Positions 1 to 58,243 of a DNA stretch of 64,000 bases are shown here, piece after piece. Source of the DNA: Candidatus Nomurabacteria bacterium (GTDB lineage Bacteria; Patescibacteriota; Saccharimonadia; Saccharimonadales; CAIOMD01); the NCBI GenBank assembly GCA_020631975.1, contig JACKGO010000002.1, positions 71,218 through 135,217 on the forward strand, in the 5' to 3' direction. Numbering within the stretch: position 1 is the first letter of the stretch; the number at the start of each line of letters is the position of its first letter. The notes beneath the pieces are model-generated. The model saw nothing but the letters and a program-made list of their open reading frames with translations, ran no database searches and was not told the DNA's origin. The position numbers and the translations under genes were made by a program.

Positions 1-495
<495 letters not shown>

Positions 496-1126: not shown

Positions 1127-3638
1127 TGTCGTCTGCCGTCTCTTCTACTTCTTGTAAGACCTTCGCTACCAATGCAAGAGAAACAACACTATCACCGTTA
1201 TTTAAACGCATGATACGAACACCTTGAGTTGCGCGACCGAGTTCTGATATATCTTTAATGCCTAAACGTATAGTTTGCCCTTGAGAAGAAATGATAATCA
1301 CCTCATTCGCTTCTTCTGTAAGATTGGCGACACCAATTAGATTACCGGTTTTTTTGTTAACAACCGCTGATCTAATACCTACACCACCCCTTTTATGAGC
1401 AGTAAACTGAGCAACCTTCGTACGCTTGCCATACCCTAGTTCGCTAATAACAAATATATTTGAATCTTCGTGAACTATATCCATGCCGATAACGTAATCG
1501 TTCGGGCGCAAACGTATTCCACGTACACCCCTAGATACTCTCCCCATAGCCCTAACTTCTTTTTCATGGAACCGTATCGCTTGACCTAACGATGTAGAAA
1601 TAACTACTTCGTTATCTCCTGTGCTAAAGCGAATCCACTTTAATTCATCACCATCATCTAGGTTAATTGCTATGAGCCCAGAGGTGCGTACATTTCTGTA
1701 CTGTTCGTATGCAGTTTTCTTTACAACACCCCGTACTGTTGCCATGAACAAATATCCGTTCTCTTCTGACTTGCTTACCCTTATAAGTGCACTTACTTTT
1801 TCTTCAGGCTGTAACTGCAATAGGTTTACAATAGCAACGCCCTTTGCATTGAGGCCAGTTGCTGGAATTTCGTAACCTTTTAGTCGGAATACCCTTCCTT
1901 TATTGGTAAAGAACAGCAAAAAGTCATGCGTGCTGGCAATAACAAGATGTTCTATAAGATCTTCATCTCTGGTTGTCATACCGCGACGACCCTTACCACC
2001 GCGACCTTGTCTTTTATAGTCTACAGCTGGGCTTCGTTTAATATAGTTTTCTGTTGTTAGAGTTACTACTACTTGTTCATCAGGAATTAGTTCTTCGTCA
2101 CTAAACTTTCCAAGCTCTTGAGAGACTATCTTGGTACGTCGCTCATCACCGTAGCGCTCTTTAAGGTCGGCAAGTTCTTGCTTGATAATACCCAATATCT
2201 TGGTTTCATCTGCCAAAATAGCCTTGAGGTTAGTAATAAGTTTGATAAGTTCGGCAAGTTCATCTTCAATTTTTTGTCGCTCTAGACCTGTTAGTGTTCT
2301 AAGTGGCAACGCTAAGATAGATTTTGCCTGAATCTCAGACAGCTTAAATTGCTGCATAAGGTTCTTGGAAGCTTCTTCTACCGTCTTAGAAGCACGTATG
2401 ACACGAATTACTTCGTCTATATTATCTAAGGCTACTTTATATCCTTCTAGTATGTGGGCACGAGCCTCTGCCTTCTTGAGCTCGAATTCAGTCCTGCGCC
2501 GTACGACAACTTGGCGATGCTTAATATATTCGTGCAATATATCACTAAGGCTCAGAACTCGTGGTTGAATACCATCAACTAACGCGAGCATATTGTAATG
2601 AAACGATGTTTGCAGTGGAGTAAGTTTATATAATTGATTCAATACTTTTTTAGGGTATGCATCTTTTTTCAGGTCTACCACAATACGCACAATACCGCGG
2701 GCACTTTCGTCTCGTAAGTCAGATATGCCGGTAATCTTTTTATCTTTTACTAAATCAGCAATTTTCTCTATAAGTGACGCTTTGTTTAGATTGTAAGGAA
2801 TTTCCGATATAACAATTCTGAATGCACCTTTTTTAGAACGCTCCTGAATATCTGCCACACCCCTGACAACCACACCACCACGGCCAGTCTTATAAGCAGT
2901 TGTTAACGATTCACTACCGTACACTATGCCACCCGTAGGGAAATCAGGACCTTTCACATATTGCAATAGATCGTCGGTACTTGCTTCTGGTGTGTCTATA
3001 AGATGCGTAATCGCATCAATAATTTCACCCAAGTTATGTGGAGGTATAGACGTAGCCATTCCTACCGCTATTCCAATCTGTCCGTTTAAAAGAAGATTCG
3101 GTAAACGTGCGGGTAAGACAGTTGGTTCTTGCTTGCGGCCGTCATAGTTATCACGCCAGTCAACCGTTTCTTTATCTATATCTACGAGCATTTCTTCTGC
3201 GACCCGAGCCATACGGGCTTCTGTGTATCGCATGGCTGCTGGCGGATCTCCGTCCATAGAGCCAAAGTTACCTTGGCCATCAACCAATGTGTAACGCATA
3301 GACCAATCTTGAGCCATACGTACCATAGAATCGTAAATGGCAGAATCGCCATGCGGGTGGTAATCACCCATCACAGAACCTACCACCGTTGCGGATTTAC
3401 GATGACGTGCTCCGGCACGTAGACCCTCGAGGTTCATGGTGTATAAAATACGACGATGAACAGGCTTAAGTCCATCACGTACGTCAGGTAATGCACGCGA
3501 CACAATGACACTCATAGAGTAGCGTAGGTAGCTATCTTCCATGATATTTTCAACAGAGGTAAGTTCTACTTCTCTTGAATGTGTTTGAGCAGGAATAATT
3601 TCCATATCTGGTGTATCTTTTACTACATCTTCGTCCAT
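1119..3638 (-). CDS. gyrA: DNA gyrase subunit A
   Basis: 839 aa. The N-terminal breakage-reunion domain carries motifs [14 protein letters not shown] and [11 protein letters not shown]-terminal beta-pinwheel repeats are present. It lies directly downstream of gyrB. Confidence 0.97.
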
Positions 3639-5738: not shown

Positions 5739-7727
5739 TTGTTCATTAGTATATATACAAAAATGTTTCGAAAATTAATATCAAACCTACCATTCCAACC
5801 TTCTTTGCTATCAGATGTAGCCTTTTATGCGCATAGGCTCAAGCAGGAGCACGCTATACGACGTATTGGTTTTATATTAATACTGGTTGGCTTTGGCATA
5901 CAGATTTTTGCTGTCGCTTTTCCACCAGAAGCCTCGTTAGCCACCAACACATCAGACATAGTATACGGAGCAACTACTAAAAAAGATGTGTTACGTGCGT
6001 ATCGTAATAACCAAGACACGCAAGGCCGAAAAGACATAAGAGCAATTTTTGATCATTACGGTATCGGCGAAGCTCAAATTGAAAACGCAACCAAAACTAC
6101 TATTAAAGATAACAACTCAAACTACATAAACACTTCTAGAAGCACTACCAAATATGCAGATACCTTTGTGCCAATTCAAGGAGCCATAGATGGTGGAATT
6201 TATGAATTTCCCCTTAAATATTGGCGCAAAAACGAATTCCCAAACGGTTACCCTGCTCTAACAGGAATATCTACGTACGGATTTAGGTTTTGGATATTAC
6301 TTAAAGGTTGCGGAAATATTGTGTACGAAAAAGGTGCTAAAAAACCGAACTTTGAAATAACCAAACAACTAACTTCTAAATCTACCATCAATGAGGGAGA
6401 AAAGAGTACATACGACATTAGATTCCGTAATACTGGTGCTATTGCGAGTAACCAGACAAAAATTACCGATAGCTTACCTGCTGGGCTAGAGTACGTTTCG
6501 TACAAAAGTACTGCCGATGTACGCTTTCATAAAAAAGGTCAAACCCTCACTTGGGAAATAGCTAATAAAAACAGTAGTTTAAGCCCAGGAAATAGATGGC
6601 ACCAAATAACGGTAACAACAAAATCTACCAAAGCCACTACTAAGAAGCTGTGTAATGCAGTGGTAATTAATGCCGGGAACGCCAAACGTGCTGAAGCAAA
6701 AGATACTACATGCATTACGGTTGTTAAGCCTACGTGCCCTGGTACAGGGTTACCTATTCCCGCGGGAGGTGTTGGAGCCTGCCTAGTTCAATGCCCAGAC
6801 GGCTCGCAGATTCCGTATAATCAAAGTTGTAGTGTACCCCAACTTAGTTGTAGTAATTTACAAGTAGTCGCTGCATCAGCCTGGAACACCAGAGAACTGC
6901 AAACTACGGTCGCCAGCCAGCCGGGCGCTGCTGTGCGACAGGTTGACTTTTACATAAATGGGCAATTAGCTGGCTCTTCACAAAATGCAACAAGCCAAGG
7001 AGTGTATTCGTATACGGGCAGCTTCCCTGATGCAGGCACGTACATAATCAAAAGTGAGGTCATTGCTGCTAATGGGCAGGTTCAGCCCAGCCAAAACTGT
7101 ATGTACGAAGAAACAATTAATAAACCAGACGTTAATGGACCAATCTTGGTAACAGATAAACGTGTTCGGAATGAGACACAAAATATTGATAACGCGAACA
7201 ACACAACCGCCAACCCTGGTGATCAGCTAACGTATAGTCTTACTATCACCAACCAAGGTGCCAGCCCAGCCGTAGACCTAGCGCTCTCTGGTGAATACGC
7301 TGAAGATATACGTGATATTTTAGAATATGCCGATATTGTGACACTTAACGACGGTGTGCTTAATAAAGAAACCAGCAAAATTACATGGGCAGCTACTACA
7401 ATTGCGCCCGGGCAAACCATAACTAAAACATTCGCCGTTAAGGTCAAAGATCCTTTGCCTGCTACACCAATATCATTGTCTAACCCATTATCGTATGACT
7501 ATGAAATGCACAATAAGTTTGGCCGAACAGTTGTTGTTAAGCTGAATAAACCTGGTTCAAAAGCTATTGAACAAACTGCGAGCATGCTACCTAATACTGG
7601 TCCAGGAAGCACGTTACTAATGAGTACACTGATAGTAGTCGTTGTTGCCTATTTTTACTATCGTAATAAACTACTCTCAAAAGAATTGGGTATTATTCAA
7701 AAAGAGTTTCAAGCGGGAGGACTATAG
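5739..7727 (+). CDS. LPXTG-type cell-surface protein with DUF11-like repeat domains
   Basis: 662 aa with an N-terminal TM/signal segment. Repeated blocks resemble DUF11 (TDSLPAGLEYVS, GDQLTYSLTITNQG). The C-terminal sorting signal is LPNTG (7587-7601), followed by a hydrophobic helix and a basic tail. The TTG start at 5739 is uncertain; an ATG at 5763 is possible. Confidence 0.7.
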   Translation: MFISIYTKMFRKLISNLPFQPSLLSDVAFYAHRLKQEHAIRRIGFILILVGFGIQIFAVAFPPEASLATNTSDIVYGATTKKDVLRAYRNNQDTQGRKDIRAIFDHYGIGEAQIENATKTTIKDNNSNYINTSRSTTKYADTFVPIQGAIDGGIYEFPLKYWRKNEFPNGYPALTGISTYGFRFWILLKGCGNIVYEKGAKKPNFEITKQLTSKSTINEGEKSTYDIRFRNTGAIASNQTKITDSLPAGLEYVSYKSTADVRFHKKGQTLTWEIANKNSSLSPGNRWHQITVTTKSTKATTKKLCNAVVINAGNAKRAEAKDTTCITVVKPTCPGTGLPIPAGGVGACLVQCPDGSQIPYNQSCSVPQLSCSNLQVVAASAWNTRELQTTVASQPGAAVRQVDFYINGQLAGSSQNATSQGVYSYTGSFPDAGTYIIKSEVIAANGQVQPSQNCMYEETINKPDVNGPILVTDKRVRNETQNIDNANNTTANPGDQLTYSLTITNQGASPAVDLALSGEYAEDIRDILEYADIVTLNDGVLNKETSKITWAATTIAPGQTITKTFAVKVKDPLPATPISLSNPLSYDYEMHNKFGRTVVVKLNKPGSKAIEQTASMLPNTGPGSTLLMSTLIVVVVAYFYYRNKLLSKELGIIQKEFQAGGL

Positions 7728-7729
7728 GT

Positions 7730-8293
7730 ATGTCAGAAAAACTTCGCCACAACCACGAACAACAGTCTAATCACACTGAGAAAAAACCATACCACCACGA
7801 AACTATTCGTAAACACGAGACGCACACGTCTCCTGAACGTACACATTCTAAAGAGGCTATTTATAAGACAATAGAAAGTCAGGCTAAAAGCAAAGATAGC
7901 TTAAACATAACCCACACAGAAAAAGAGCATCATCAGCGACCTCATCACTATATTACCCGCAGCGTTAAACTTGGTGTGTATACCCACACAATTAAGCGTG
8001 TACAAAGCCAGCTAAAGCCCACAGAGCGCGTTTTTAGTAAAATTATACATAACGATACTATTGAAACTATAAGCGAGCTTGGCGCGGACACTGTGGGACG
8101 TTCCAGCGCAATTCTAGGCGGAGGCATCGTCATGGTCTTCGCTGGACTCGGCTTACTACTCACTGCCCGGTATTTTGGTTTTACAATACCCTTAAGTAGC
8201 CTCATTGTGTTATATGTAATCGGTTTTGTATTAGTGTTTATCGTTGATATCGCAAGCAAACCTCTAAAAAATCGGCGCCGTAAACACAACTAA
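7730..8293 (+). CDS. hypothetical His/Lys/Glu-rich protein with C-terminal TM segments
   Basis: 187 aa. It starts 3 nt after the LPXTG gene stop, so co-transcription is likely. The N-terminal half is low-complexity and His-rich, followed by two predicted TM helices. Confidence 0.4.
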   Translation: MSEKLRHNHEQQSNHTEKKPYHHETIRKHETHTSPERTHSKEAIYKTIESQAKSKDSLNITHTEKEHHQRPHHYITRSVKLGVYTHTIKRVQSQLKPTERVFSKIIHNDTIETISELGADTVGRSSAILGGGIVMVFAGLGLLLTARYFGFTIPLSSLIVLYVIGFVLVFIVDIASKPLKNRRRKHN

Positions 8294-8317: not shown

Positions 8318-11236
8318 TTATGAACTGGTTTTAGAGGTTAGATTACCATTCTTGTCTATATGTATTGTGTCATCATGAGAAAACATACCTTTTGTACCAG
8401 TTTTTGCCACAATACTATCTTTTTGGGTAGAGGTACCTTGTTGAGAACTACTTGTGGTATCTGTTTTTGTATTGAGTGATTCTTTGAGTTTATTTGCAAT
8501 GGAATCTATTTCTTGGTTATCTACAGTTTTACTACTGATATTTCGGTTGGTAGAAATATCGCCTTTTGGTACTGTCTCTGCAGCCTTGGGGGTTGTTGGG
8601 GCTGCTTGAGCTGCTGTTTGTTGTGGCCCAGCCGCCATCGCCGGATTCGTAATACGTTTGGCGTCTTGCGCTCGGCGCTTTGCCAGCCAATCATCTAAAA
8701 ACGAGCTCTGGCCGGGCGGCTTAGGAGGTGCAATCCCTCCACCGAAAGCTCCTCCCCTCGCACCCAGGGTTGGTTTGGGTTTTTCTTCTGTCGTGAGTCT
8801 ATTGAAGATTTCTTTCTCCACAATCGCTTTTGGTCTACCGTATTTAACTGCTGAAAGCTGTTTAAGAGCATCTGATAGTTGCTTGTTTGTATGGCCTAGT
8901 GGCGGGAGGTTAGCCATACTGAAAGGTTGCGTGGGCACGCCTCCAATGAGCATTTTTACAATTGTATTATAGTTGGGTAGCTGCTGTAAGTCGTCTATAT
9001 CAAAGATAGGTCTAAAGTACCGTTCAAGCACTTCTGCATCTTGATTACCAACACGATGTGAAATAACGGTACCAATGTTTCCAAAAATAGCATCCCGAAC
9101 TTCTTCAGTTAGTTGGGTGGTAAACTGGTTCGCCACTATAAGGTTTAGTCCAAATTTACGAGCCTCACTTAAAATGGTAGCAAAAGAATCTGTTGAGAAA
9201 TTTTGAAATTCGTCTACATATAAACTAAAATCCCTCCGCTGAGCTTCTGGTATATCTGCCCGGCTCATGGCTGCTGCTTGAAATTTCATAACAAAAATCA
9301 TCCCTAAAAGCTTTGAGTTAAGCTCACCTGTCCGCCCCTTACTTAGATTAACCAGTAATATTTTACCTTCGTCCATGATTTTTCTAAGGTCAAAGGAACT
9401 AGTATTCTGGCCAATAATGTTACGCATCATTTCGTTAGACATAAAGGCTCCAAACTTGCTAACGACCCAGCTTGTCACTTCTCCGGATTCGTTAGAACGT
9501 TGTGAATTTGGAAACTCTTTCGTCCAGAAATCTAGCACCATACGATCATTTGTGTATTTCAGTTTTTGTTTTGCGTAATCATAGTCCGTAAGTAGTTTAG
9601 GTATGTCTATAAAAGTTCCACCGTGAGGATCTGCCATAAGGAGTAATGCACAATTTCTAAAGATATGTTCGTAGCGTGGCCCAATAATTCCTTGATGTTG
9701 AGGGTCATATAATTTATACAACATAGAAATTACTTCTTGAATCAAAAAGTCTTTTTGTTCAGGCAAGCTATATTCAAATAAGTTAAGCCCAAGAGGATAA
9801 TCCATATCTGACGGACAAAAATAAATTACATCTTCTGTTCTTTCTTTTGGCACCATTCCTAGCAGAGTCTCAGCTGTGTCACCGTGAGGATCAATAAAAG
9901 CAAACCCACGACCTTCTATCATATCTTGCAGCGCAAGGTTCTCTAAAAATACAGATTTACCGACACCGGTCTGACCGACAATATACATATGGCGGCGGCG
10001 ATCGTTTTCGCTCAGCCTGATAGGCTTTTTGGCACCCCTAAAAACGTTGTAGCCAAGTAAGAGCCCATCTTCAAGCAAATTACGAGGTCCATCAACTTGT
10101 TTTGACTGTTGACGCTCAAGCTGTGTGGTTGGGACATTAGAAGAATCTGGCAAATGAAATATCGTTGCTAGTTCTACATCATTTAAAATACTCTTTCTGT
10201 ATTCTGGTGGGAAAAATCGTAAAATATACGCGAGAACAAAGCTGTCTATATCCTTGGCTGGAATAAATTTAAACCCATTTCTGCCGGTAGCTTCATATAA
10301 AGAAAATACTGCGACAATGTTGTTTAAAATAACTTGCGATCGGTGCGAAATATTAGACGACGCTACTACCCGAACCAAGACTTCAAAACCATTATGCCGA
10401 GCTTTTTCTTCTATTGCTTCTGCGCGGGCTTGATCGGTACCAGAAACAGTTGGTGGTTCTACTGAGTTTTGACCTTCTTTTGCCTCTGGTGGTTTAACCG
10501 GCGCTGTGAATATTTGGCGGACCCACCAAAAAGCCAAATCTGCACCTTTTCTATTTTTCTTGCCTTGCCGTAAATTACTTGACTCGGTACTGGCTAGCTT
10601 AGTCCAGCCCGAGCTGGTAGGCCTAATAAGTATTTGAACCCCCGCACCATCTTCTCTTTCTAGTGACGACAAGGCGTTTAACAAGGCCTGCATAGTATCA
10701 CGCTTAATCTCTTGATACGTCGCTATAGGATATACCGACGATTCTTTTAGCACTAATTCCCCGCCAATGGTACCGCTCGCTTTACCGACAGGGCTAAATA
10801 TATTATGTTCGGCTACTTCTTCTAACCGGCTATTTGGGTAGGCGCTCAAGATTGCTTGTTCTATTACCGGCACCAATGTAATTGGAGCGGCCGTATAAAA
10901 ATACACTTTTCCCTTATGCGCTACAATTTCTAAGCTAATATGTCGCTGACCATACAAGTTACTTTTAAAGCCTTTCTTGGTGGTACTCGCCAGTATGTTA
11001 TACAGAGTTTGCGCCTTGAATATACTCTCGTCGGCTATATCGCGAGCATCGCGGCCTTTGCTTTCTAGATCGTCACTGCTTGGTGGTAAATGGATAAGCA
11101 AAGGTACCATTTTTAAGCCTCTTTCGTAGTTCTTTGCTTCTCGTAGGTTTTTCCTTGCAAAGAATAACATTCCACCAGCTAAACTGGGGATTACCACCAA
11201 AATAACTATAAGTAAAAATGAGGCCGAACTACTCAT
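8318..11236 (-). CDS. membrane-anchored TraD/VirD4/TraG-like P-loop ATPase (FtsK/HerA superfamily, coupling-protein type)
   Basis: 972 aa with an N-terminal TM helix. It has Walker A GQTGVGKS and a Walker-B-like LYVDEFQNF. The C-terminal tail of about 200 aa is low-complexity and Pro/Ala/Thr-rich. Confidence 0.65.
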   Translation of the reverse strand: MSSSASFLLIVILVVIPSLAGGMLFFARKNLREAKNYERGLKMVPLLIHLPPSSDDLESKGRDARDIADESIFKAQTLYNILASTTKKGFKSNLYGQRHISLEIVAHKGKVYFYTAAPITLVPVIEQAILSAYPNSRLEEVAEHNIFSPVGKASGTIGGELVLKESSVYPIATYQEIKRDTMQALLNALSSLEREDGAGVQILIRPTSSGWTKLASTESSNLRQGKKNRKGADLAFWWVRQIFTAPVKPPEAKEGQNSVEPPTVSGTDQARAEAIEEKARHNGFEVLVRVVASSNISHRSQVILNNIVAVFSLYEATGRNGFKFIPAKDIDSFVLAYILRFFPPEYRKSILNDVELATIFHLPDSSNVPTTQLERQQSKQVDGPRNLLEDGLLLGYNVFRGAKKPIRLSENDRRRHMYIVGQTGVGKSVFLENLALQDMIEGRGFAFIDPHGDTAETLLGMVPKERTEDVIYFCPSDMDYPLGLNLFEYSLPEQKDFLIQEVISMLYKLYDPQHQGIIGPRYEHIFRNCALLLMADPHGGTFIDIPKLLTDYDYAKQKLKYTNDRMVLDFWTKEFPNSQRSNESGEVTSWVVSKFGAFMSNEMMRNIIGQNTSSFDLRKIMDEGKILLVNLSKGRTGELNSKLLGMIFVMKFQAAAMSRADIPEAQRRDFSLYVDEFQNFSTDSFATILSEARKFGLNLIVANQFTTQLTEEVRDAIFGNIGTVISHRVGNQDAEVLERYFRPIFDIDDLQQLPNYNTIVKMLIGGVPTQPFSMANLPPLGHTNKQLSDALKQLSAVKYGRPKAIVEKEIFNRLTTEEKPKPTLGARGGAFGGGIAPPKPPGQSSFLDDWLAKRRAQDAKRITNPAMAAGPQQTAAQAAPTTPKAAETVPKGDISTNRNISSKTVDNQEIDSIANKLKESLNTKTDTTSSSQQGTSTQKDSIVAKTGTKGMFSHDDTIHIDKNGNLTSKTSS

Positions 11237-15608: not shown

Positions 15609-15610
15609 TG

Positions 15611-15974
15611 TAGCCAGATTGCCTATAAGCCGGGTTCTGTGATACGTCGATCATCTATCTAGGAATCGTATTGCTACGAATCTCAAGCGGGTTGACTTGG
15701 GTATAGCGGGCCACTAGCTTAAAAAGCACTACCCAATCCTTGCAGCCAACAGGGTTTACCCTCCTACTATGTCACCATAGTAAGCTGTGGGCTCTTACCC
15801 CACTCATTTCACCCTTACCTAGTATGCATTGCTGTCATAGTTAGGCGGTATCGTTTCTGTGGCACTTTCCCTAAGATTACTCTTGGTTGCCGTTAGCAAC
15901 TGTTGTGCCCTATACTGCCCGGACTTTCCTCCCGCATTTTTTTGAATGCAGGCGACCGACCGGCAATCTAGCTA
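15611..15974 (-). ncRNA. rnpB: RNase P RNA (bacterial type)
   Basis: The minus strand carries three conserved blocks. GAGGAAAGTCCGGGC is the rc of 15917-15931. AGGGTGAAATGAGTGGGGTAAGAGCCC is the rc of about 15789-15815. ACAGAACCCGGCTTAT is the rc of 15625-15640. A P1 helix can form between AGCTAGATTGCC (5') and GGCAATCTGGCT (3'). The ends are approximate. Confidence 0.9.
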
Positions 15975-45170: not shown

Positions 45171-47939
45171 TTACAACTTTGGTGGTACCACAAACATGGC
45201 ATCCACGGTATCGCCAGGAGTGCTTTGGTTTTTAAGGTATGGTTTAGCAAAATATAAATATGCTGGGTAGTTAATAATTTCTGCTGATTTGCCAGTATTG
45301 TTTGGCATGTTACCTCTATCTGCACAGTTTTGTATGCCCTTACTAACGTTGCAGTTTTGCTGCTCGTCACCTGGTGAGGTATTTAAGTACCTACTACCAC
45401 CGCCTCTTCTAAAATCTATAGTAGGTGCAGAAACCGCTCCATTTATATTTAAAGGCACCCTACAGGTTGAATGTATCTGATTTTGCCCTACCTTTGCAGC
45501 TGGGCCATAACCTGCGTATCCACAGGTATATATACCTGTTTTAGAAACTAAAATTGCATCTATGCGCTTAACATTGTTATCTACTACAATGGGACCTTCG
45601 GAAATAATTAAAAGCACACCAGTCTTTGCAGGATCCGTATAATTTGCTGCACTAGTAAGATTGATGACATCACCTACAATCATCAACATCTTATCTGTAG
45701 GATTGACGGCCGTTATTTTTTTGGTATATGTAGTTACTCCACTGCCAAAAGTATCACCCCAGCCTAATACGGGTATGCCACCATTATCTTTAGCCCAGTC
45801 AGGAACAGGCAATGAGTTATTGGTGGGAGTTAAAGAAGTAGCTTTTTTTATAATATAACAACCGTCTTCAGTAGCATTGAGCCCGCCACTCTCAATTTCA
45901 CCACATGTTTTTGGCAAATTCCCAGTTACATCTGTATACACTTGGTTGGCATTTTTACCTGATATAGCTTTTGAGCCAGAGGCATCTAGACCATCTGGTG
46001 GTACAGGGTTAATGGTACGAAACGCCGATGTATCTATAGTAACTGTACCAAACGCTAACGCTGCATATTGGTCTACACTACCCCTTTTAGTGGTACCACT
46101 AGGGTTATCTGTAGAATTAAAGCGTATATCGCCTGCTGTCGCATATATGTCATTACCGTAAAAACGAGCAAAGGGGACTTCATAGACGAGGATTTCACCA
46201 CATTTTTGTTGTTCATTATTAACACTTAGGCAATATTTAATACCGCTGAGGCCTGGGGCTGATTGGTTGAGCTGACCGATAATTGCTGCAGGAATTGGAA
46301 TAACATTTGTCGGCGGATTGCAGCCATAAGCCCCACCATACCAAAAACCAGTACCCGCAGGTGATGACACTCCACCAATGCTCCAACTAAATGGTATCCG
46401 TATCGGGGTCGACGGGCAACTTCCGCCGTTATTTACTTTTACATCAGCTTCGTTGATAGAAATGCTTTCGCTGCCCTTCTCGTAGCTAACAGTAGTAGGC
46501 ACATCACCGTCAGGGTCAATAATGTGCACACAATCACTAGTGCTCGTTGTAGCGTCACTATTCCAGCTTGTTGGTGTGAATGATAACGTATCACAATAAT
46601 TACCTACATTATTCATTACAATAGACCGTGCTGGTACCGTTCCAACACCTGTTTGTCTCTTGGTGCCTACGTTCGAATCAGTAGGTATATCGTATGATGT
46701 GTAATCATCTGCCATACCTGTATCACCCGTAACATCGCCGTCAATAGATTCATCGTTTTTATCTGGGCCAATGTTTTCTATAGAATGAGAATAACTAACC
46801 GTTTGCCCGGTAAAAGCTGTGCGTTGTCTGCTAGCACTACCAGAAATAGTCCATTTAGGGGGGTTGTTACATGGCGGCTGTTCATTCATCGGGAACACCA
46901 TGAGTGATAAATAATTTTGAGCATTAAGATCGTTAATAGTTAATTTGTAATTTATACCACGTTTAATTGTATACTTTAACCATGCAAAATTATCAGAACT
47001 CTCCCAATTACTTGCTTGGGTTGCGTCATGCAAAGGTTTGTATCTATTTGCGTCAGTTTTATCCCAACCTACCTCTTTAGCCCATTTGCTTGCAGATGTG
47101 CTTGTATCTATAGCTTTCATTCGATTGCCGGTGTCTTTTCTTGTAAGCCCAAAGTATAAATCTTTAAAAACATAACCATCAAGTACTTTACCCCTACCAT
47201 TATTTGATCCGTCATAATCAAATGTTTTTCGATTATAAGGAGCTCCAGGGCTGTTATTATCTTGTGCGCCCCTAGCATTGTTATCTGCATAATTATCTAT
47301 GTCATATGCGTAAATTATTCCTGTTTCATTAGAAGTCGAATAACAATTTAAATTCATATTGATATTTATGTCGGTGTATACAGAGCTGTCTGTGGAGTCT
47401 ATCGCTATGGGGACTGTATAATCATAGCTGAGACTGCCTACAAAACCGATATGCTTTGCTTCATCCACCTGTACCTTAAACTTCATACTGCTTTCGTCAG
47501 GAGGGCTATTCATTTTAATAGTAAACATGTATTTTGTTAAAGCTAACTGAGAATCATAAAAAGCGCCAGCAATATCATAAGAAACTTTAAATTCATTATC
47601 ATTGTCTTTACAATCACGCGTAGTGCTATTAATGCTATTCCCAAATATATCAATTCTATCAAATGTGTATTTAAATTTTTTCACACAATTTAAGTTATCT
47701 AGAATTACTTTAAATGTGCGATCTTTAGTTGTGGTGGTATTCCCATCCATGTACACCGCAAAAGACATTGCCGTATCTACGTGTTTAGAATCATCCCTGG
47801 CAAGCTTTATAGATATTGGTTCGTTCGACCACTGAGTACCCGGCCATTTTAAGGCCAATGCAGAATTACCAAATGCAAATAATGAAAAGCTTATTAACAA
47901 AAATAGTGATAATACTTTGTAGTGCATAGCTTTCATCAT
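45171..47939 (-). CDS. large secreted protein of unknown function, first-in-line with the pilus operon
   Basis: 922 aa with an N-terminal signal peptide (MMKAMHYKVLSLFLLISFSLFAFGNSALA). It is rich in Asn/Thr/Gly/Asp and has many Cys. No motif recognised. It overlaps the upstream gene by 4 nt and lies 52 nt upstream of pilM. Confidence 0.6.
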   Translation of the reverse strand: MMKAMHYKVLSLFLLISFSLFAFGNSALALKWPGTQWSNEPISIKLARDDSKHVDTAMSFAVYMDGNTTTTKDRTFKVILDNLNCVKKFKYTFDRIDIFGNSINSTTRDCKDNDNEFKVSYDIAGAFYDSQLALTKYMFTIKMNSPPDESSMKFKVQVDEAKHIGFVGSLSYDYTVPIAIDSTDSSVYTDININMNLNCYSTSNETGIIYAYDIDNYADNNARGAQDNNSPGAPYNRKTFDYDGSNNGRGKVLDGYVFKDLYFGLTRKDTGNRMKAIDTSTSASKWAKEVGWDKTDANRYKPLHDATQASNWESSDNFAWLKYTIKRGINYKLTINDLNAQNYLSLMVFPMNEQPPCNNPPKWTISGSASRQRTAFTGQTVSYSHSIENIGPDKNDESIDGDVTGDTGMADDYTSYDIPTDSNVGTKRQTGVGTVPARSIVMNNVGNYCDTLSFTPTSWNSDATTSTSDCVHIIDPDGDVPTTVSYEKGSESISINEADVKVNNGGSCPSTPIRIPFSWSIGGVSSPAGTGFWYGGAYGCNPPTNVIPIPAAIIGQLNQSAPGLSGIKYCLSVNNEQQKCGEILVYEVPFARFYGNDIYATAGDIRFNSTDNPSGTTKRGSVDQYAALAFGTVTIDTSAFRTINPVPPDGLDASGSKAISGKNANQVYTDVTGNLPKTCGEIESGGLNATEDGCYIIKKATSLTPTNNSLPVPDWAKDNGGIPVLGWGDTFGSGVTTYTKKITAVNPTDKMLMIVGDVINLTSAANYTDPAKTGVLLIISEGPIVVDNNVKRIDAILVSKTGIYTCGYAGYGPAAKVGQNQIHSTCRVPLNINGAVSAPTIDFRRGGGSRYLNTSPGDEQQNCNVSKGIQNCADRGNMPNNTGKSAEIINYPAYLYFAKPYLKNQSTPGDTVDAMFVVPPKL

Positions 47940-53690: not shown

Positions 53691-53809
53691 ACTTATATTA
53701 TATCATACCTGTGCTTTTTAGTCAATTTTTGTAAAAACACTTGTACTATACAACATAGTTGGGTTGGTGGGGCGTGGGCAGTATTGCACCACACGCCCCA
53801 CCTTGGCAA

Positions 53810-54376
53810 TCAGCCCACCAGTATGTACTGACGGGTGCAGGTTGGGGACCAGAACATGGTCTTCACCTTGTTCCAGGCCATGTCTGATAGTACCGGATTT
53901 TTGCCAGGTTGTACCAGCTTGACCACTGGCCGTACCCATCGGTACACCTTGCCATTTTGCCCCACAACGTACGGAACGTTGATTTCGGGCATGAAGGCGA
54001 CGTCAGCCTGAAACTCGCCAGGGCCGAGTTCTTGATCCCATCTGAATACCGTAACTGGTGCAGAGTTAAGTTTCTGCTTGCCACGGAGAATCAGACGAAA
54101 TTTTGCCCACTTGTCGACATACAGTGTGTCGAGAGTAGCGAAGAGGTTGAAGATACGTTCATCATAACTCTCTTCGCCCACAACGACTTGCTGCAGGCAC
54201 CATGGTGGTTGCACGAATGCAGTCGGCTGGGGAGCAACTTCGAACTCTTGGCCGATGTTGTCTGTTGCTTCTGACGAAACCGGTGTCGGCAGGTTCTGTG
54301 CCCAGGCATGCCCAGACACAGTCACGAAGAACACCGTAGCTAACGCTACGGCAACCCTACGAGCTTTTGCTGTCAA
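53810..54376 (-). CDS. secreted hypothetical protein (GC-rich island)
   Basis: 188 aa with a TTG start preceded by GAGAGGA and the signal peptide MTAKARRVAVALATVFFVTVSGHAWA. Line 54001-54060 is 33/60 G+C. A GC hairpin, GGTGGGGCGTG/CACGCCCCACC, lies downstream at about 53768-53803. Confidence 0.6.
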   Translation of the reverse strand: MTAKARRVAVALATVFFVTVSGHAWAQNLPTPVSSEATDNIGQEFEVAPQPTAFVQPPWCLQQVVVGEESYDERIFNLFATLDTLYVDKWAKFRLILRGKQKLNSAPVTVFRWDQELGPGEFQADVAFMPEINVPYVVGQNGKVYRWVRPVVKLVQPGKNPVLSDMAWNKVKTMFWSPTCTRQYILVG

Positions 54377-54452
54377 TGTACCATTCCTCTCAAGAATTCG
54401 GATGATTGCCGAGTACTACTTTAACATAAATTAAAATATTTTACAAGCATAA

Positions 54453-55513
54453 CGTAATGACTCAACAGCTTTGCAACACATAACATGTGGCTGTTCTACA
54501 CTGTAAGTGTACTAATCTAAACAGGAGAACAGCCACATGAGCTATTCTAGCAACCCATTACTACCTAAAGCGAGAGCAGAAGCCGTTAGGCTCGTCATTG
54601 AGCAAAGTATGCCTTTGACAATTGCTGCAAGAAGATGTGGAGTCCACCGCACAACCTTATGGCGTTGGCTACGCAAATGGGAGCTACTAAACCAGAATGT
54701 TCAGCTCACCAATGTCAACCGACCAAAAAGAAACTCAGATTCCCAAGTGCCCAGCAGCTTTCGTCTCGCAGCTTGTACGTGGCGTATACCTACCAACAGT
54801 AGCCGACCTCATTTCTTTGGTCGGGCAGTACCCAATATGGTTGTTGAACGCATTCGGTATTACCGCACTAAGTACAACCGTTGCGCAACAATTGTTCACG
54901 CCTACTGCAAACAAGAAGGTACCGAAGTGTCACTCAGTACGGTTCGTCGGGTATTGTACCGACTCGGGTTGGTGGTACGACAAAAGTGGCAACGTCGGTG
55001 GCGTCCGCCACTACCGCGCCCAGATGTACAGTGTCCAGGTGACTTCATTCAAACCGACACGGTACACCTGTATGATCACCGAACAAAAAAGCGGAGCTAT
55101 TTGTATACACTGGTTGATGTTTACTCTCGTTGGGCGTATGCCGAATACAGTACTGTGCTCAGCCAGCGTGTAGCCGCTGCAGTCATCCAGCGAGGCCAGG
55201 CCTATGCTCAGTTCCGTTTCAAAACCGTCCAGGCTGACAATGGACCCGAATTTAGTAAGAACTTTGAAGAGCTACTTAAAGCGCAAGGTACGACAGTACG
55301 TCACAGTAGAGTGCGACGACCGAATGACAATGCTCACATAGAGCGGTTCAACCGGACAATACAAGAAGAATGTATTGGTTCCACAAATCCATTCTCTAAA
55401 GAACTATATGGCAAGGTAGCAAACTACCTTGCCTACTACAACGAAGAAAGGCTACACTTGAGCTTAGAGTGTAGAACACCAGCGAGTGTTGCAAAGGTGT
55501 TGAACTAATTACG
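54453..55513 (+). mobile_element. IS481-family insertion sequence (1061 bp) with inverted repeats and a 6-bp target duplication
   Basis: The termini are CGTAAT...ATTACG. The left repeat (54453-54479) matches the reverse complement of the right repeat (55486-55513) in about 24 of 27-28 aligned positions with one 1-nt gap. The core TCAACA(G/C)CTTTGCAACAC is shared. GCATAA flanks both ends (54447-54452 and 55514-55519). Confidence 0.85.
54537..55508 (+). CDS. IS481-family DDE transposase (HTH plus rve integrase core)
   Basis: 323 aa with an N-terminal HTH (TIAARRCGVHRTTLWRWLRKW). The DDE context is IQTDTVHL, VQADNGPEF and HIERFNRTIQEE. The RBS is AGGAGAACAGCCAC-ATG. Confidence 0.88.
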   Translation: MSYSSNPLLPKARAEAVRLVIEQSMPLTIAARRCGVHRTTLWRWLRKWELLNQNVQLTNVNRPKRNSDSQVPSSFRLAACTWRIPTNSSRPHFFGRAVPNMVVERIRYYRTKYNRCATIVHAYCKQEGTEVSLSTVRRVLYRLGLVVRQKWQRRWRPPLPRPDVQCPGDFIQTDTVHLYDHRTKKRSYLYTLVDVYSRWAYAEYSTVLSQRVAAAVIQRGQAYAQFRFKTVQADNGPEFSKNFEELLKAQGTTVRHSRVRRPNDNAHIERFNRTIQEECIGSTNPFSKELYGKVANYLAYYNEERLHLSLECRTPASVAKVLN

Positions 55514-55588
55514 GCATAAAAAATACCCACTGGTGTGGGTTTTGGGTGGGCGCTGGGCTGCAAAGCCCTAGCGCCCACCCGTGGTGTC

Positions 55589-56080
55589 TTAGCGACTGAC
55601 GGTGAAGCCTGCCGTCTGGTCAAAGTAGTAGTTTTTGTTGATGGTTATGACGACCGCCAACTGGCACCTAGCGTAGCACTCGACGTGCGGATAGATGACA
55701 TGCCACCGACCCTTGCGCAGTTCACCGCCAGACCAGTAGTCTGTGGTCGCTCCGTCTAGATAGCGCATTGAGTGCAAATGTAGCTCGATGCCACGCACTT
55801 TGCGTGACTTCACAAGCGTTTTGACCGCGGTGACGCGATCGTTACCCTTGTGGCGAACAACACACAGCTTGACCCAAACCCTGACACTTTCGTGAAAGAC
55901 TGTATCTACGTATTGATCGTAGATCTTCCACTTGCGTGTTGGGCAACCAGCGCTGCTCACGTACGCAGGTTGTGCGCTGGCACTCACTCTGCTTAGCGGT
56001 GCAGACATTGCACTCGCAGGCGCAACCGTGCCCACGAGCAAAACAACGCTCGCAAACACAATCTTGGCGATGGTAACCAC
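55589..56080 (-). CDS. secreted hypothetical protein (GC-rich island)
   Basis: 163 aa with a GTG start preceded by GAGGGAG and the signal peptide MVTIAKIVFASVVLLVGTVAPASA. The strong GC hairpin GGGTGGGCGCT...AGCGCCCACCC (about 55541-55577) lies downstream. Confidence 0.6.
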   Translation of the reverse strand: MVTIAKIVFASVVLLVGTVAPASAMSAPLSRVSASAQPAYVSSAGCPTRKWKIYDQYVDTVFHESVRVWVKLCVVRHKGNDRVTAVKTLVKSRKVRGIELHLHSMRYLDGATTDYWSGGELRKGRWHVIYPHVECYARCQLAVVITINKNYYFDQTAGFTVSR

Positions 56081-57896: not shown

Positions 57897-58243
57897 CTAC
57901 ATTTTATAAATAGAGACACATTGCTCGTATAGGCTATTCATATTTGATTCGCTAATATAACCTATGCCCCTAGCAATGAGAATCTGGTTCTCTGGTTCCG
58001 TCAATAATCCGTTGGCCATAGCGTAAAATTGATCATTTTCCTTGTAAGATTTTCTTCCAAAGCCTTCGGCGATGTTAGAACAAACCGAGACAGATGCTCT
58101 TTGCATTTGGCTAGAAAGGCCATACTGTTCATGTTTAGTAAAAAACTAGAAGTTACTTTGTAGATATGAACTGATAGGTGGTAAGTAGATTGCCATACAC
58201 GCAAATCGCGAAATGACTTTATTCTGACACTTCTATCGGCCAT
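57897..58243 (-). pseudogene. four-helix-bundle protein (23S rRNA IVS-protein family), frameshifted
   Basis: The N-terminal part, SFRDLRVWQSTYHLSVHIYKVTSSF (ORF 58001..58243), and the C-terminal part, TKHEQYGLSSQMQRASVSVCSNIAEGFGRKS... (ORF 57897..58106), are in different frames. The switch is at the A6/T6 run 58140-58145. Confidence 0.75.

Follow-up and report, generated by a model that had tools for sequence, protein, structure and literature searches.

How does a transposable element stay active in a very small, gene-dense genome, where random insertion mostly hits genes? The question is raised by a complete insertion sequence (IS) that occupies a short intergenic spacer in a 64-kb stretch of DNA attributed to a bacterium of the Saccharimonadales (here called the window, by which we mean that whole stretch). 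The element encodes a single transposase and is bounded by a 6-bp duplication of its target; as such it is a routine IS, and the notable part is its choice of target. Taken as a whole, the evidence makes it likely that this is an autonomous, recently active element of IS481 type, and that the clade to which it belongs lands 6 bp upstream of the −35 hexamer of host promoters, with the promoter usually at its left end.

Most insertions of the clade lie at the −35 edge of promoter-like sequences

We compared 25 distinct insertions of this element and of relatives 66-86% identical to it, aligning the 21 distinct left flanks at the IS end. In the first eight independent insertions, the sequence that leads away from the left end has a common layout, in which the 6-bp duplication is followed by a −35-like hexamer, 17 nt, and an extended −10 of the form TGnTAnnnT. 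In the window, the duplication is abutted by the −35 hexamer TTGTAA (54446-54441), with the extended −10 TGTTAAAGT (54426-54418) 17 nt beyond it. The targeting hypothesis, which had no place in the original prediction, was recorded after those eight insertions and was then tried on sites from five further relatives. Among the later sites, the match is exact in L035, L047, and L050 and nearly so in L040, L041, and L045; at L068 the −35 hexamer is in register with a 16-nt spacer, and at L067 the promoter stands at the right end of the element (TAGAGC / TTGAAT / 17 nt / TGATAAAAT), upstream of rpmG.

Across the 21 left flanks, positions 7-12 read TTGACA (T in 15, T in 12, G in 17, A in 14, C in 12, and A in 12), positions 27-28 read TG (16 each), positions 30-31 read TA (17 each), and position 35 is T in 16. 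In most of the 25 sites, the −35 consensus falls at positions 7-12 and the extended −10 at positions 27-35. The exact motif TGnTAnnnT occurs in register in 12 of the 21 left flanks, compared with 0.19% of 127,910 window positions (P ~5e-28, or ~1.5e-5 when 84 alternative registers, orientations, and ends are allowed for), and in none of the 24 right flanks that serve as a control. Wherever the left flank fits, the adjacent called gene lies on the strand opposite the transposase. We thus consider nucleotide-precise, oriented targeting of the promoter edge to be well supported statistically.

Two further lines of evidence concern the nature of the flanking motifs, which are presumably working promoters. 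A scan of the window for the motif returned 17 positions, 15 of which lie outside long open reading frames (ORFs) and 10 of which have the start of an ORF of at least 100 aa no more than 250 nt downstream; this placement supports the view that the motifs are real promoters in this organism. In addition, the promoters are not part of the element itself, because the spacers are unrelated between sites, the duplication stands in between, and the empty alleles carry the promoters unchanged.

The same target can also be used more than once. Contigs L017-L021 carry a head-to-tail array of the form TATTTA/IS-A/TATTTA/IS-B/TATTTA beside a TAGACA-17-TGCTATAAT promoter, in which the two elements are different members of the family. 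A similar array is present in L030, where one IS is flanked by TATTAG on both sides and the left end of a second IS follows directly. That a second element picked the same 6 bp is something that selection alone would not give.

Several points nevertheless weigh against the targeting account. About five of the 25 sites (L015, L025, L036, L043, and L069) lack an in-register promoter, L067 has its promoter at the opposite end, and several other sites have a poor −35 or −10 hexamer. The flanking promoters are consensus matches only, and no single transposase is being measured, as about eight related elements contributed the sites. All sites come from metagenome assemblies, in which many of the contigs that cross the repeat have non-matching flanks. 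Finally, the insertions that we see are those that survived selection. This last point, together with the roughly one-fifth of sites that lack an in-register promoter, also serves a rival explanation, in which the element chooses AT-rich targets loosely and only spacers between a terminator and a promoter tolerate an insertion in a genome that is ~90% coding. It would fit this explanation that intergenic spacers are short (146 bp for the occupied one) and that the duplicated hexamers are AT-rich. However, a single-nucleotide register is beyond what selection would produce: in most sites the first base of the −35 hexamer falls exactly on position 7, with sharp information peaks. Nor would survivorship account for the strong orientation bias seen in the right-flank control, for the use of an identical 6 bp by two different elements, or for the fact that other harmless positions in the spacers go unused. 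We regard survivorship as a very unlikely explanation of the pattern.

How the promoter is found is a separate matter. Under the targeting account, the transposase would recognize either a promoter bound by RNA polymerase or the promoter DNA directly. At L011 and L041 the −35 hexamer is poor, the extended −10 is perfect, and the register is kept; together with the in-register −35 hexamer of L068, despite its 16-nt spacer, these sites favor recognition of the promoter as a whole. A different possibility is that the transposase binds promoter DNA through its similarity to the element's own end, with no role for the transcription machinery; IS911 and IS30 insert beside sequences that resemble their inverted repeats. 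Read inward, the right repeat of our element has TGCAACACT at positions 21-29, which is the distance of TGnTAnnnT from the −35-side edge of the duplication; T21, G22, A25, and T29 are common to the right repeat and the promoter consensus, and no part of the ends is better conserved than the TTTGCAACA motif. End-targeting would fit just as well the arrays in L017-L021 and L030, where exactly 6 bp separate one IS from another's right end; re-targeting of the same promoter also explains them. The resemblance was spotted post hoc and is limited to four bases, and the −35 sequence TTGACA, which is the strongest target signal besides the TG, has no counterpart in the repeat (CGTAAT there), the target consensus being that of promoters in general and not that of the repeat. 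On balance we view such end mimicry as possible, though doubtful.

Under the account that we favor, then, a single transposase combining a helix-turn-helix (HTH) domain with a DDE catalytic domain of retroviral-integrase fold would recognize bipartite inverted-repeat ends, make staggered target cuts 6 bp apart, and transpose by a copy-out-paste-in pathway as in IS3. The target of the clade would be nonrandom, namely the 6 bp directly upstream of a sigma-70-type −35 hexamer (about −41 to −36), and the left, transposase-proximal end would almost always come to lie beside the promoter, so that the transposase gene and the host gene are divergent. The copy in the window would have entered a 146-bp spacer, duplicating GCATAA and sparing the genes on both sides. 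Because core promoter and coding sequence are left intact, this behavior would explain how an active transposon family persists, multiplies, and becomes abundant in such a genome.

We note in addition further transposase genes near these elements. In L017, a third rve-type transposase gene lies ~430 bp beyond the array. The relative P0072 (L036-L039, L044; left flank GGATTGGAGTCTAGG) repeatedly adjoins a different transposase gene (L037 318-1280) rather than a promoter; that gene has an HTH_38 domain and a faint rve match and is possibly IS30-like, and the arrangement may be a pile-up of IS from mixed families.

Identical copies and reciprocal empty sites point to recent transposition

The element was originally predicted to have transposed recently, and this is borne out both by identical copies at other loci and by reciprocal empty sites. 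When the 1,061 bp were compared using blastn with ten fetched contigs encoding the identical protein, all ten matched over the full length, with both ends at the same two bases; eight of the copies are 100% identical and two have one mismatch, and identity at 1,061/1,061 positions recurs at six or more other loci. No further copy was found within the window, where the repeat core matches only the element's own two ends. A metagenome scan using the exact left end returned four contigs. Five sites each have their own perfect 6-bp duplication (GCATAA in the window, GTTTTA in L007, ATCTAT in L004, TGGGTA in L003, and TTTTTG in L002 and L008), and relatives contribute further intact duplications (TTCAAA, TATTTA, TATTAG, TGTGTA, TAGTTT, TACTTT, CTGCTT, TAGAGC, and CGCTAA), which brings the clade to 14 sites with perfect 6-bp duplications.

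Empty-site alleles, for which a search had been proposed, were found in both directions between the window and a sister strain, the source of contig L002 (its 329-aa gene is 98% identical to the 327-aa gene of the window). In L002, positions 7640-7790 form an allele in which a single GCTTAA is directly followed by AAAATACCCACTGG; since this allele has the hexamer only once, the GCATAA flanks in the window are not part of a longer pre-existing repeat, an alternative that had been raised with the original prediction. Conversely, the window has a single TTTTTG at 53726-53731, in a second, unoccupied target (Table 1), where the sister strain (L002, L008) carries the identical IS with a TTTTTG duplication. 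Contigs L058 and L064 have the IS at the same site as in the window, and L059-L061 are 100% identical to the window's right flank and break 30-60 nt inside the IS. Judged from these alleles, the insertion is a recent one relative to strain divergence.

In a number of other contigs the left flank of one site is joined to the right flank of another, without a matching duplication (L001, L005, L006, L013, L027, L029, L033, and L064, as well as several P0061 contigs); two independent assemblies (L013, L064) agree in pairing a left flank with GCTTTG and the GCATAA right flank of the window. These contigs are probably chimeras, the alternative being recombination between IS copies. We rejected the mismatched flank pairs in L001, L005, L006, L013, and L064 as candidates for IS-mediated rearrangement, as short reads cannot phase an exact repeat of 1,061 bp.

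The element has bipartite ends and a leader hairpin

The coordinates and sequence of the element between its two GCATAA copies were confirmed base for base, as was the uninterrupted 323-aa ORF whose last codons lie in the right repeat; its TAA stop (55506-55508) falls inside that repeat, five bases short of the right terminus. The imperfect terminal repeats of ~27-28 bp are likewise present as first described (CGTAATGACTCAACAGCTTTGCAACAC and GTGTTGCAAAGGTGTTGAACTAATTACG align with one 1-nt indel and agree in 23 of 28 columns, the ungapped core being 18 nt at 94%), and they contain the TTTGCAACA motif that is conserved in all relatives examined. The repeats nevertheless extend further than that description allowed. 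Some 37-55 nt in from either terminus there is a second block, GGyTGTTCTACACTGTAA, which relatives have kept (as seen on aligning the two ends of four family members); within the element, 54492-54507 pairs with 55463-55478 at 94%. We thus read the ends as bipartite, with inverted repeats longer than first described, and the left subterminal block is probably a second binding site for the transposase. In some relatives, an extra palindrome of ~25 nt (e.g., GCTTGGTTGGCGTTAGCCAACCAA) lies between the two blocks of the left end; the element in the window does not have it.

Upstream of the transposase gene, the stem of a leader hairpin takes in the ATG (54537-54539) and, in part, the Shine-Dalgarno sequence (GGAG, 54524-54527). 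The predicted RNA fold has an energy of -31 kcal/mol (z = -3.9, with 0 of 200 shuffled sequences as stable), and four stem pairs are kept by double changes across eight family members. In other IS elements, analogous hairpins limit transposase translation, and by this analogy the hairpin probably keeps translation of the transposase low, particularly on read-through transcripts. A consensus scan of the plus strand of the left end found no promoter belonging to the element itself, which is why we word the role of the hairpin with caution; reading the sequence for a circle-junction promoter formed by a right-end −35 and a left-end −10, with spacers of 0 or 6 bp, likewise gave no convincing match.

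The transposase is distantly related to the IS481 family

Pfam assigns the transposase an HTH_23 domain at residues 11-49 and matches to rve (6.9e-14) and rve_3 (7.6e-14) across residues 166-315, in keeping with the HTH plus DDE architecture that had been proposed. Its catalytic triad, the absence of which would have spoken against that proposal, is complete on alignment: D174 (QTDTVHL; 55056-55058), D234 (QADNGPEF; 55236-55238), and E269 (HIERFNRT; 55341-55343) are spaced by 60 and 35 residues and are invariant in 18 aligned homologues that are 64-86% identical. A PDB search with the single transposase sequence gave no match, for which reason we used a profile of the homologue alignment. The match of this profile to the mouse mammary tumor virus (MMTV) integrase core 5cz1 is weak (E = 0.013) but positionally exact, D174, D234, and E269 falling in the D, D, and E columns of motifs that we take to be the catalytic DDE of retroviral integrases.

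Among the NCBIfam transposase models, IS481 is the best (NF033577; 168.6 bits) and IS3 the second (112.4 bits), with both scores below the respective curated cutoffs of 224 and 160 bits, so that the protein is not a certified IS481 equivalog. Among plasmid records, annotated proteins with an alignment covering 92-99% of the length are all IS481-family transposases, and their identity is 23-26%. Members of the IS481 family are about 0.95-1.3 kb long, according to the ISfinder description. The element agrees with the family in its rve core with a DDE triad, its single ORF, its length and inverted repeats, and its 6-bp duplication; homologues are 318-323 aa long. Most IS481 members likewise make a 6-bp duplication, and their ends are TG...CA (PMC10045372). 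The termini of this element and of every relative examined are CGT...ACG, in which only the outermost base differs from TGT...ACA. The assignment to IS481 made in the original prediction therefore stands with regard to the best model and the full-length relatives and has to be loosened with regard to closeness. Because of the sub-cutoff hidden Markov model score, the 23-26% identity, and the non-canonical CGT...ACG ends, which also count against the overall account, we classify it as a distant IS481-type element and not as a certified member of the family.

The same three features, together with the score of the IS3 model, would fit an IS3-family variant with fused frames or a separate, unnamed family. 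Against this, the transposase is encoded in one uninterrupted ORF with neither a frameshift site nor a second ORF, and so does not show the two overlapping ORFs, −1 frameshift, 3-5-bp duplication, and TG...CA ends of IS3 elements; IS481 is clearly the top model and the source of the only near-full-length annotated relatives; and an element of this size with a 6-bp duplication is what one typically sees in IS481. We consider it unlikely that the element belongs outside the IS481 group. Matches in Pfam and NCBIfam were to rve, IS481, and IS3 only, with none to Mutator or IS256-type transposases.

The family is common in Saccharimonadales

Judged from its proteins, the host is a bacterium of the Saccharimonadales (Saccharibacteria, Patescibacteria): EF-P, encoded 1.7 kb away from the element, is 100% identical to NCBI proteins of Candidatus Saccharibacteria and Candidatus Saccharimonadales. 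The identical transposase is present on 107 contigs and in 204 index blocks, and a homologue search returned 5,519 proteins, of which the best 120 are all at least 64% identical; two of those 120 bear organism names, both Saccharimonadales. A scan of species-representative genomes gave two relatives, one 81% identical in a Saccharibacteria metagenome-assembled genome (MAG) from Lac Pavin and one fragment. The original prediction had held that intact mobile elements are scarce in genomes of this kind; in view of the counts of identical proteins and homologues, this fails for the present lineage, in which the family is common.

The identical transposase is also in NCBI as MCB9816921.1 and MCB9817431.1, labeled Candidatus Nomurabacteria, whereas EF-P from the window carries the Saccharibacteria and Saccharimonadales labels. 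Either the MAG is mislabeled or the element occurs in two lineages of Patescibacteria. That the two accessions are close together suggests at least two copies in one assembly.

The insertion leaves its surroundings in place

The original spacer of ~146 bp runs from the terminator of the 163-aa gene to the promoter of the 188-aa gene, and the insertion broke no coding sequence or core promoter element (Table 1). A Pfam search placed none of the three neighboring hypothetical genes (327, 188, and 163 aa) in a family. The 188-aa gene shares 39% identity with its counterpart in the sister strain (L002 7065-7622), compared with 98% for the adjacent 327-aa gene, and the locus is hypervariable; both strains have an IS copy beside this gene, but on opposite sides. 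An outward-facing hybrid promoter-like site (54438-54465, minus strand) combines a −35 TTGAGT in the left end of the IS with a −10 TAAAAT in the flank, across a 16-nt spacer; such a site, which is not a general feature of the insertions, may contribute transcription in the direction of the 188-aa gene.

It had been suggested that the IS delivered or rearranged the island of genes in which it lies. We find no evidence for delivery, because only one copy is present in the window, there are no passenger genes in the element, and the 327-, 188-, and 163-aa genes keep the same order, between a DUF218 gene and a TlyA-like gene, in a strain without this insertion. The stronger form of the idea, that the IS is part of a composite transposon or other larger mobile unit that brought or reshuffled these three genes, could appeal to a local GC content of 44-51%, compared with ~41% for the window, to the divergence of the 188-aa gene beside a conserved neighbor and the IS copies on its opposite sides, and to the recombinant-looking flank combination shared by L013 and L064. 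Yet mismatched flanks are expected from short-read assembly over an exact 1-kb repeat, and the single copy with its own duplication, the lack of passengers, and the gene order in the insertion-free strain all argue the other way, leaving a larger unit extremely improbable.

Elsewhere in the window, a small gene between rpsR and efp (57897-58106; L057 4701-4955; L060 4564-4806) varies between near-identical strains. It belongs to the 23S_rRNA_IVP family, with a length of 84 aa in the majority of contigs and of 69 aa in some others, and is replaced in L060 and L008 by an 80-aa ORF without a Pfam match. The window also holds six tRNA genes, and its other mapped features are given in Table 1.

Table 1. 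Features of the element, its target, and the surrounding DNA. Positions refer to the window unless a contig is named.
Feature	Position	Strand	Remarks
Complete insertion sequence	54453-55513	+	1,061 bp; ends 5'-CGTAAT...ATTACG-3'; from sequence and blastn copy ends
Left target-site duplication copy, GCATAA	54447-54452	.	From sequence; empty-site allele in L002
Right target-site duplication copy, GCATAA	55514-55519	.	From sequence; empty-site allele in L002
Left terminal inverted repeat, block 1	54453-54479	+	CGTAATGACTCAACAGCTTTGCAACAC; holds the conserved TTTGCAACA motif
Right terminal inverted repeat, block 1	55486-55513	+	GTGTTGCAAAGGTGTTGAACTAATTACG; holds the last codons and TAA stop of the transposase
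Left subterminal repeat, block 2 (GCTGTTCTACACTGTAAG)	54490-54507	+	Overlaps the 5' arm of the leader hairpin
Right subterminal repeat, block 2	55463-55478	+	Within the coding sequence; from inverted-repeat pairing and end alignment
Extra left-end palindromes in relatives	L011 2922-2945; L050 ~1420-1445; L070 ~1420-1445		From sequence
Leader hairpin	54484-54539	+	Perfect 14-bp stem, 54484-54497 with 54526-54539
Transposase gene, 323 aa	54537-55508	+	Single ORF; HTH_23, rve, and rve_3; NCBIfam IS481 is the best model
Candidate targeted host promoter of the 188-aa gene	54418-54446	-	Consensus match; also in the empty allele in L002
188-aa gene, signal-peptide-like N-terminus	53810-54376	-	ORF; divergent from the transposase gene; served by the candidate targeted promoter
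Terminator-like hairpin and T-run of the 163-aa gene	55515-55540	-	Stem 55540-55525, tail ATTTTTTATG
163-aa gene	55589-56080	-	Upstream gene whose terminator adjoins the IS
Second, unoccupied candidate target	53697-53731	-	TTTTTG (53726-53731), −35 TTGACT (53725-53720), 17 nt, TGATATAAT
Head-to-tail IS arrays	L017 1837-3977 (also L018-L021); L030 66-1160; L028, L031		From sequence
16S rRNA gene, inside which the window starts	1-493	-	RNA gene scan
Class A RNase P RNA	15610-15971		RNA gene scan
972-aa ORF	8318-11236		Weak AAA, HerA, and TrwB-type matches
922-aa ORF	45171-47939		No Pfam match

Comparison with known systems

The closest known relatives are found in the IS481 family (including IS481 and IS1002 of Bordetella and IS1649), whose members likewise are ~1 kb long with one HTH plus rve ORF, inverted repeats, and mostly a 6-bp duplication. 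Beyond the low sequence identity and the CGT...ACG termini discussed above, the present element differs from them in its bipartite ends and its Patescibacteria host, and its target is the upstream edge of a promoter and not a short sequence; that of IS481 is NCTAGN. With the IS3 family (e.g., IS911) it shares a related catalytic core and likely also copy-out-paste-in transposition via a circular intermediate, whereas IS3 members have two ORFs with −1 frameshifting, 3-5-bp duplications, and TG...CA ends where we find a single ORF, 6 bp, and CG...CG. The yeast element Ty3 offers a parallel of another kind: here too an enzyme of the integrase fold inserts at a fixed position beside a transcription initiation site, although Ty3 is a eukaryotic long terminal repeat (LTR) retrotransposon that is directed to Pol III promoters via TFIIIB and TFIIIC. 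Brochet and colleagues suggested Ty3 as a comparison for TnGBS.

In behavior, the element most resembles a group to which it does not belong. For the conjugative elements TnGBS, the insertion sequences ISLre2, and part of ISKra4, insertion takes place in a fixed orientation at 15-17 bp upstream of the sigma-A −35 box (PMC3942029, Guérillot and colleagues). The same work calls promoter targeting atypical among prokaryotic elements and reads it as a means of avoiding gene disruption, and it proposes, by analogy with Ty3, that the target is recognized through contact with the RNA polymerase initiation complex (PMC3942029). Oriented insertion upstream of a −35 box is thus common to that group and to our clade. 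Their transposases, however, are Mutator/IS256-like (p-MULT 3 or 4), whereas ours is of the unrelated integrase/IS3-IS481-like kind; they insert at a distance of 15-17 bp, as opposed to the direct contact between 6-bp duplication and −35 hexamer here; the promoter lies beside the right repeat there and usually beside the left one here; and their hosts are mainly Firmicutes. The element therefore behaves like TnGBS, ISLre2, and ISKra4 but is none of them.

Our literature search found no report of promoter targeting by IS481- or IS3-type elements, of IS481 in Saccharibacteria, or of such targeting in Patescibacteria. We lean, if only modestly, towards the view that this Saccharimonadales clade of IS481-like elements independently evolved precise, oriented integration at the −35 edge of housekeeping promoters, in convergence with TnGBS and ISLre2. 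If so, the integrase/IS3-IS481 superfamily would have its first such case, and Patescibacteria the first targeting strategy described for a mobile element, with a transposase that reads either promoter-bound RNA polymerase or the promoter DNA itself. In a phylum that is almost uncultivated, the insertions of the clade would annotate promoter positions for free and at experimental grade. Saccharibacteria have become genetically tractable (PMC10633639), and an element that settles beside promoters without destroying them could therefore become a tool for neutral-site integration or for probing promoters. Above all, the clade would provide a second, evolutionarily independent system in which to ask how a bacterial transposase finds promoters, a question that is open for TnGBS and ISLre2 as well.

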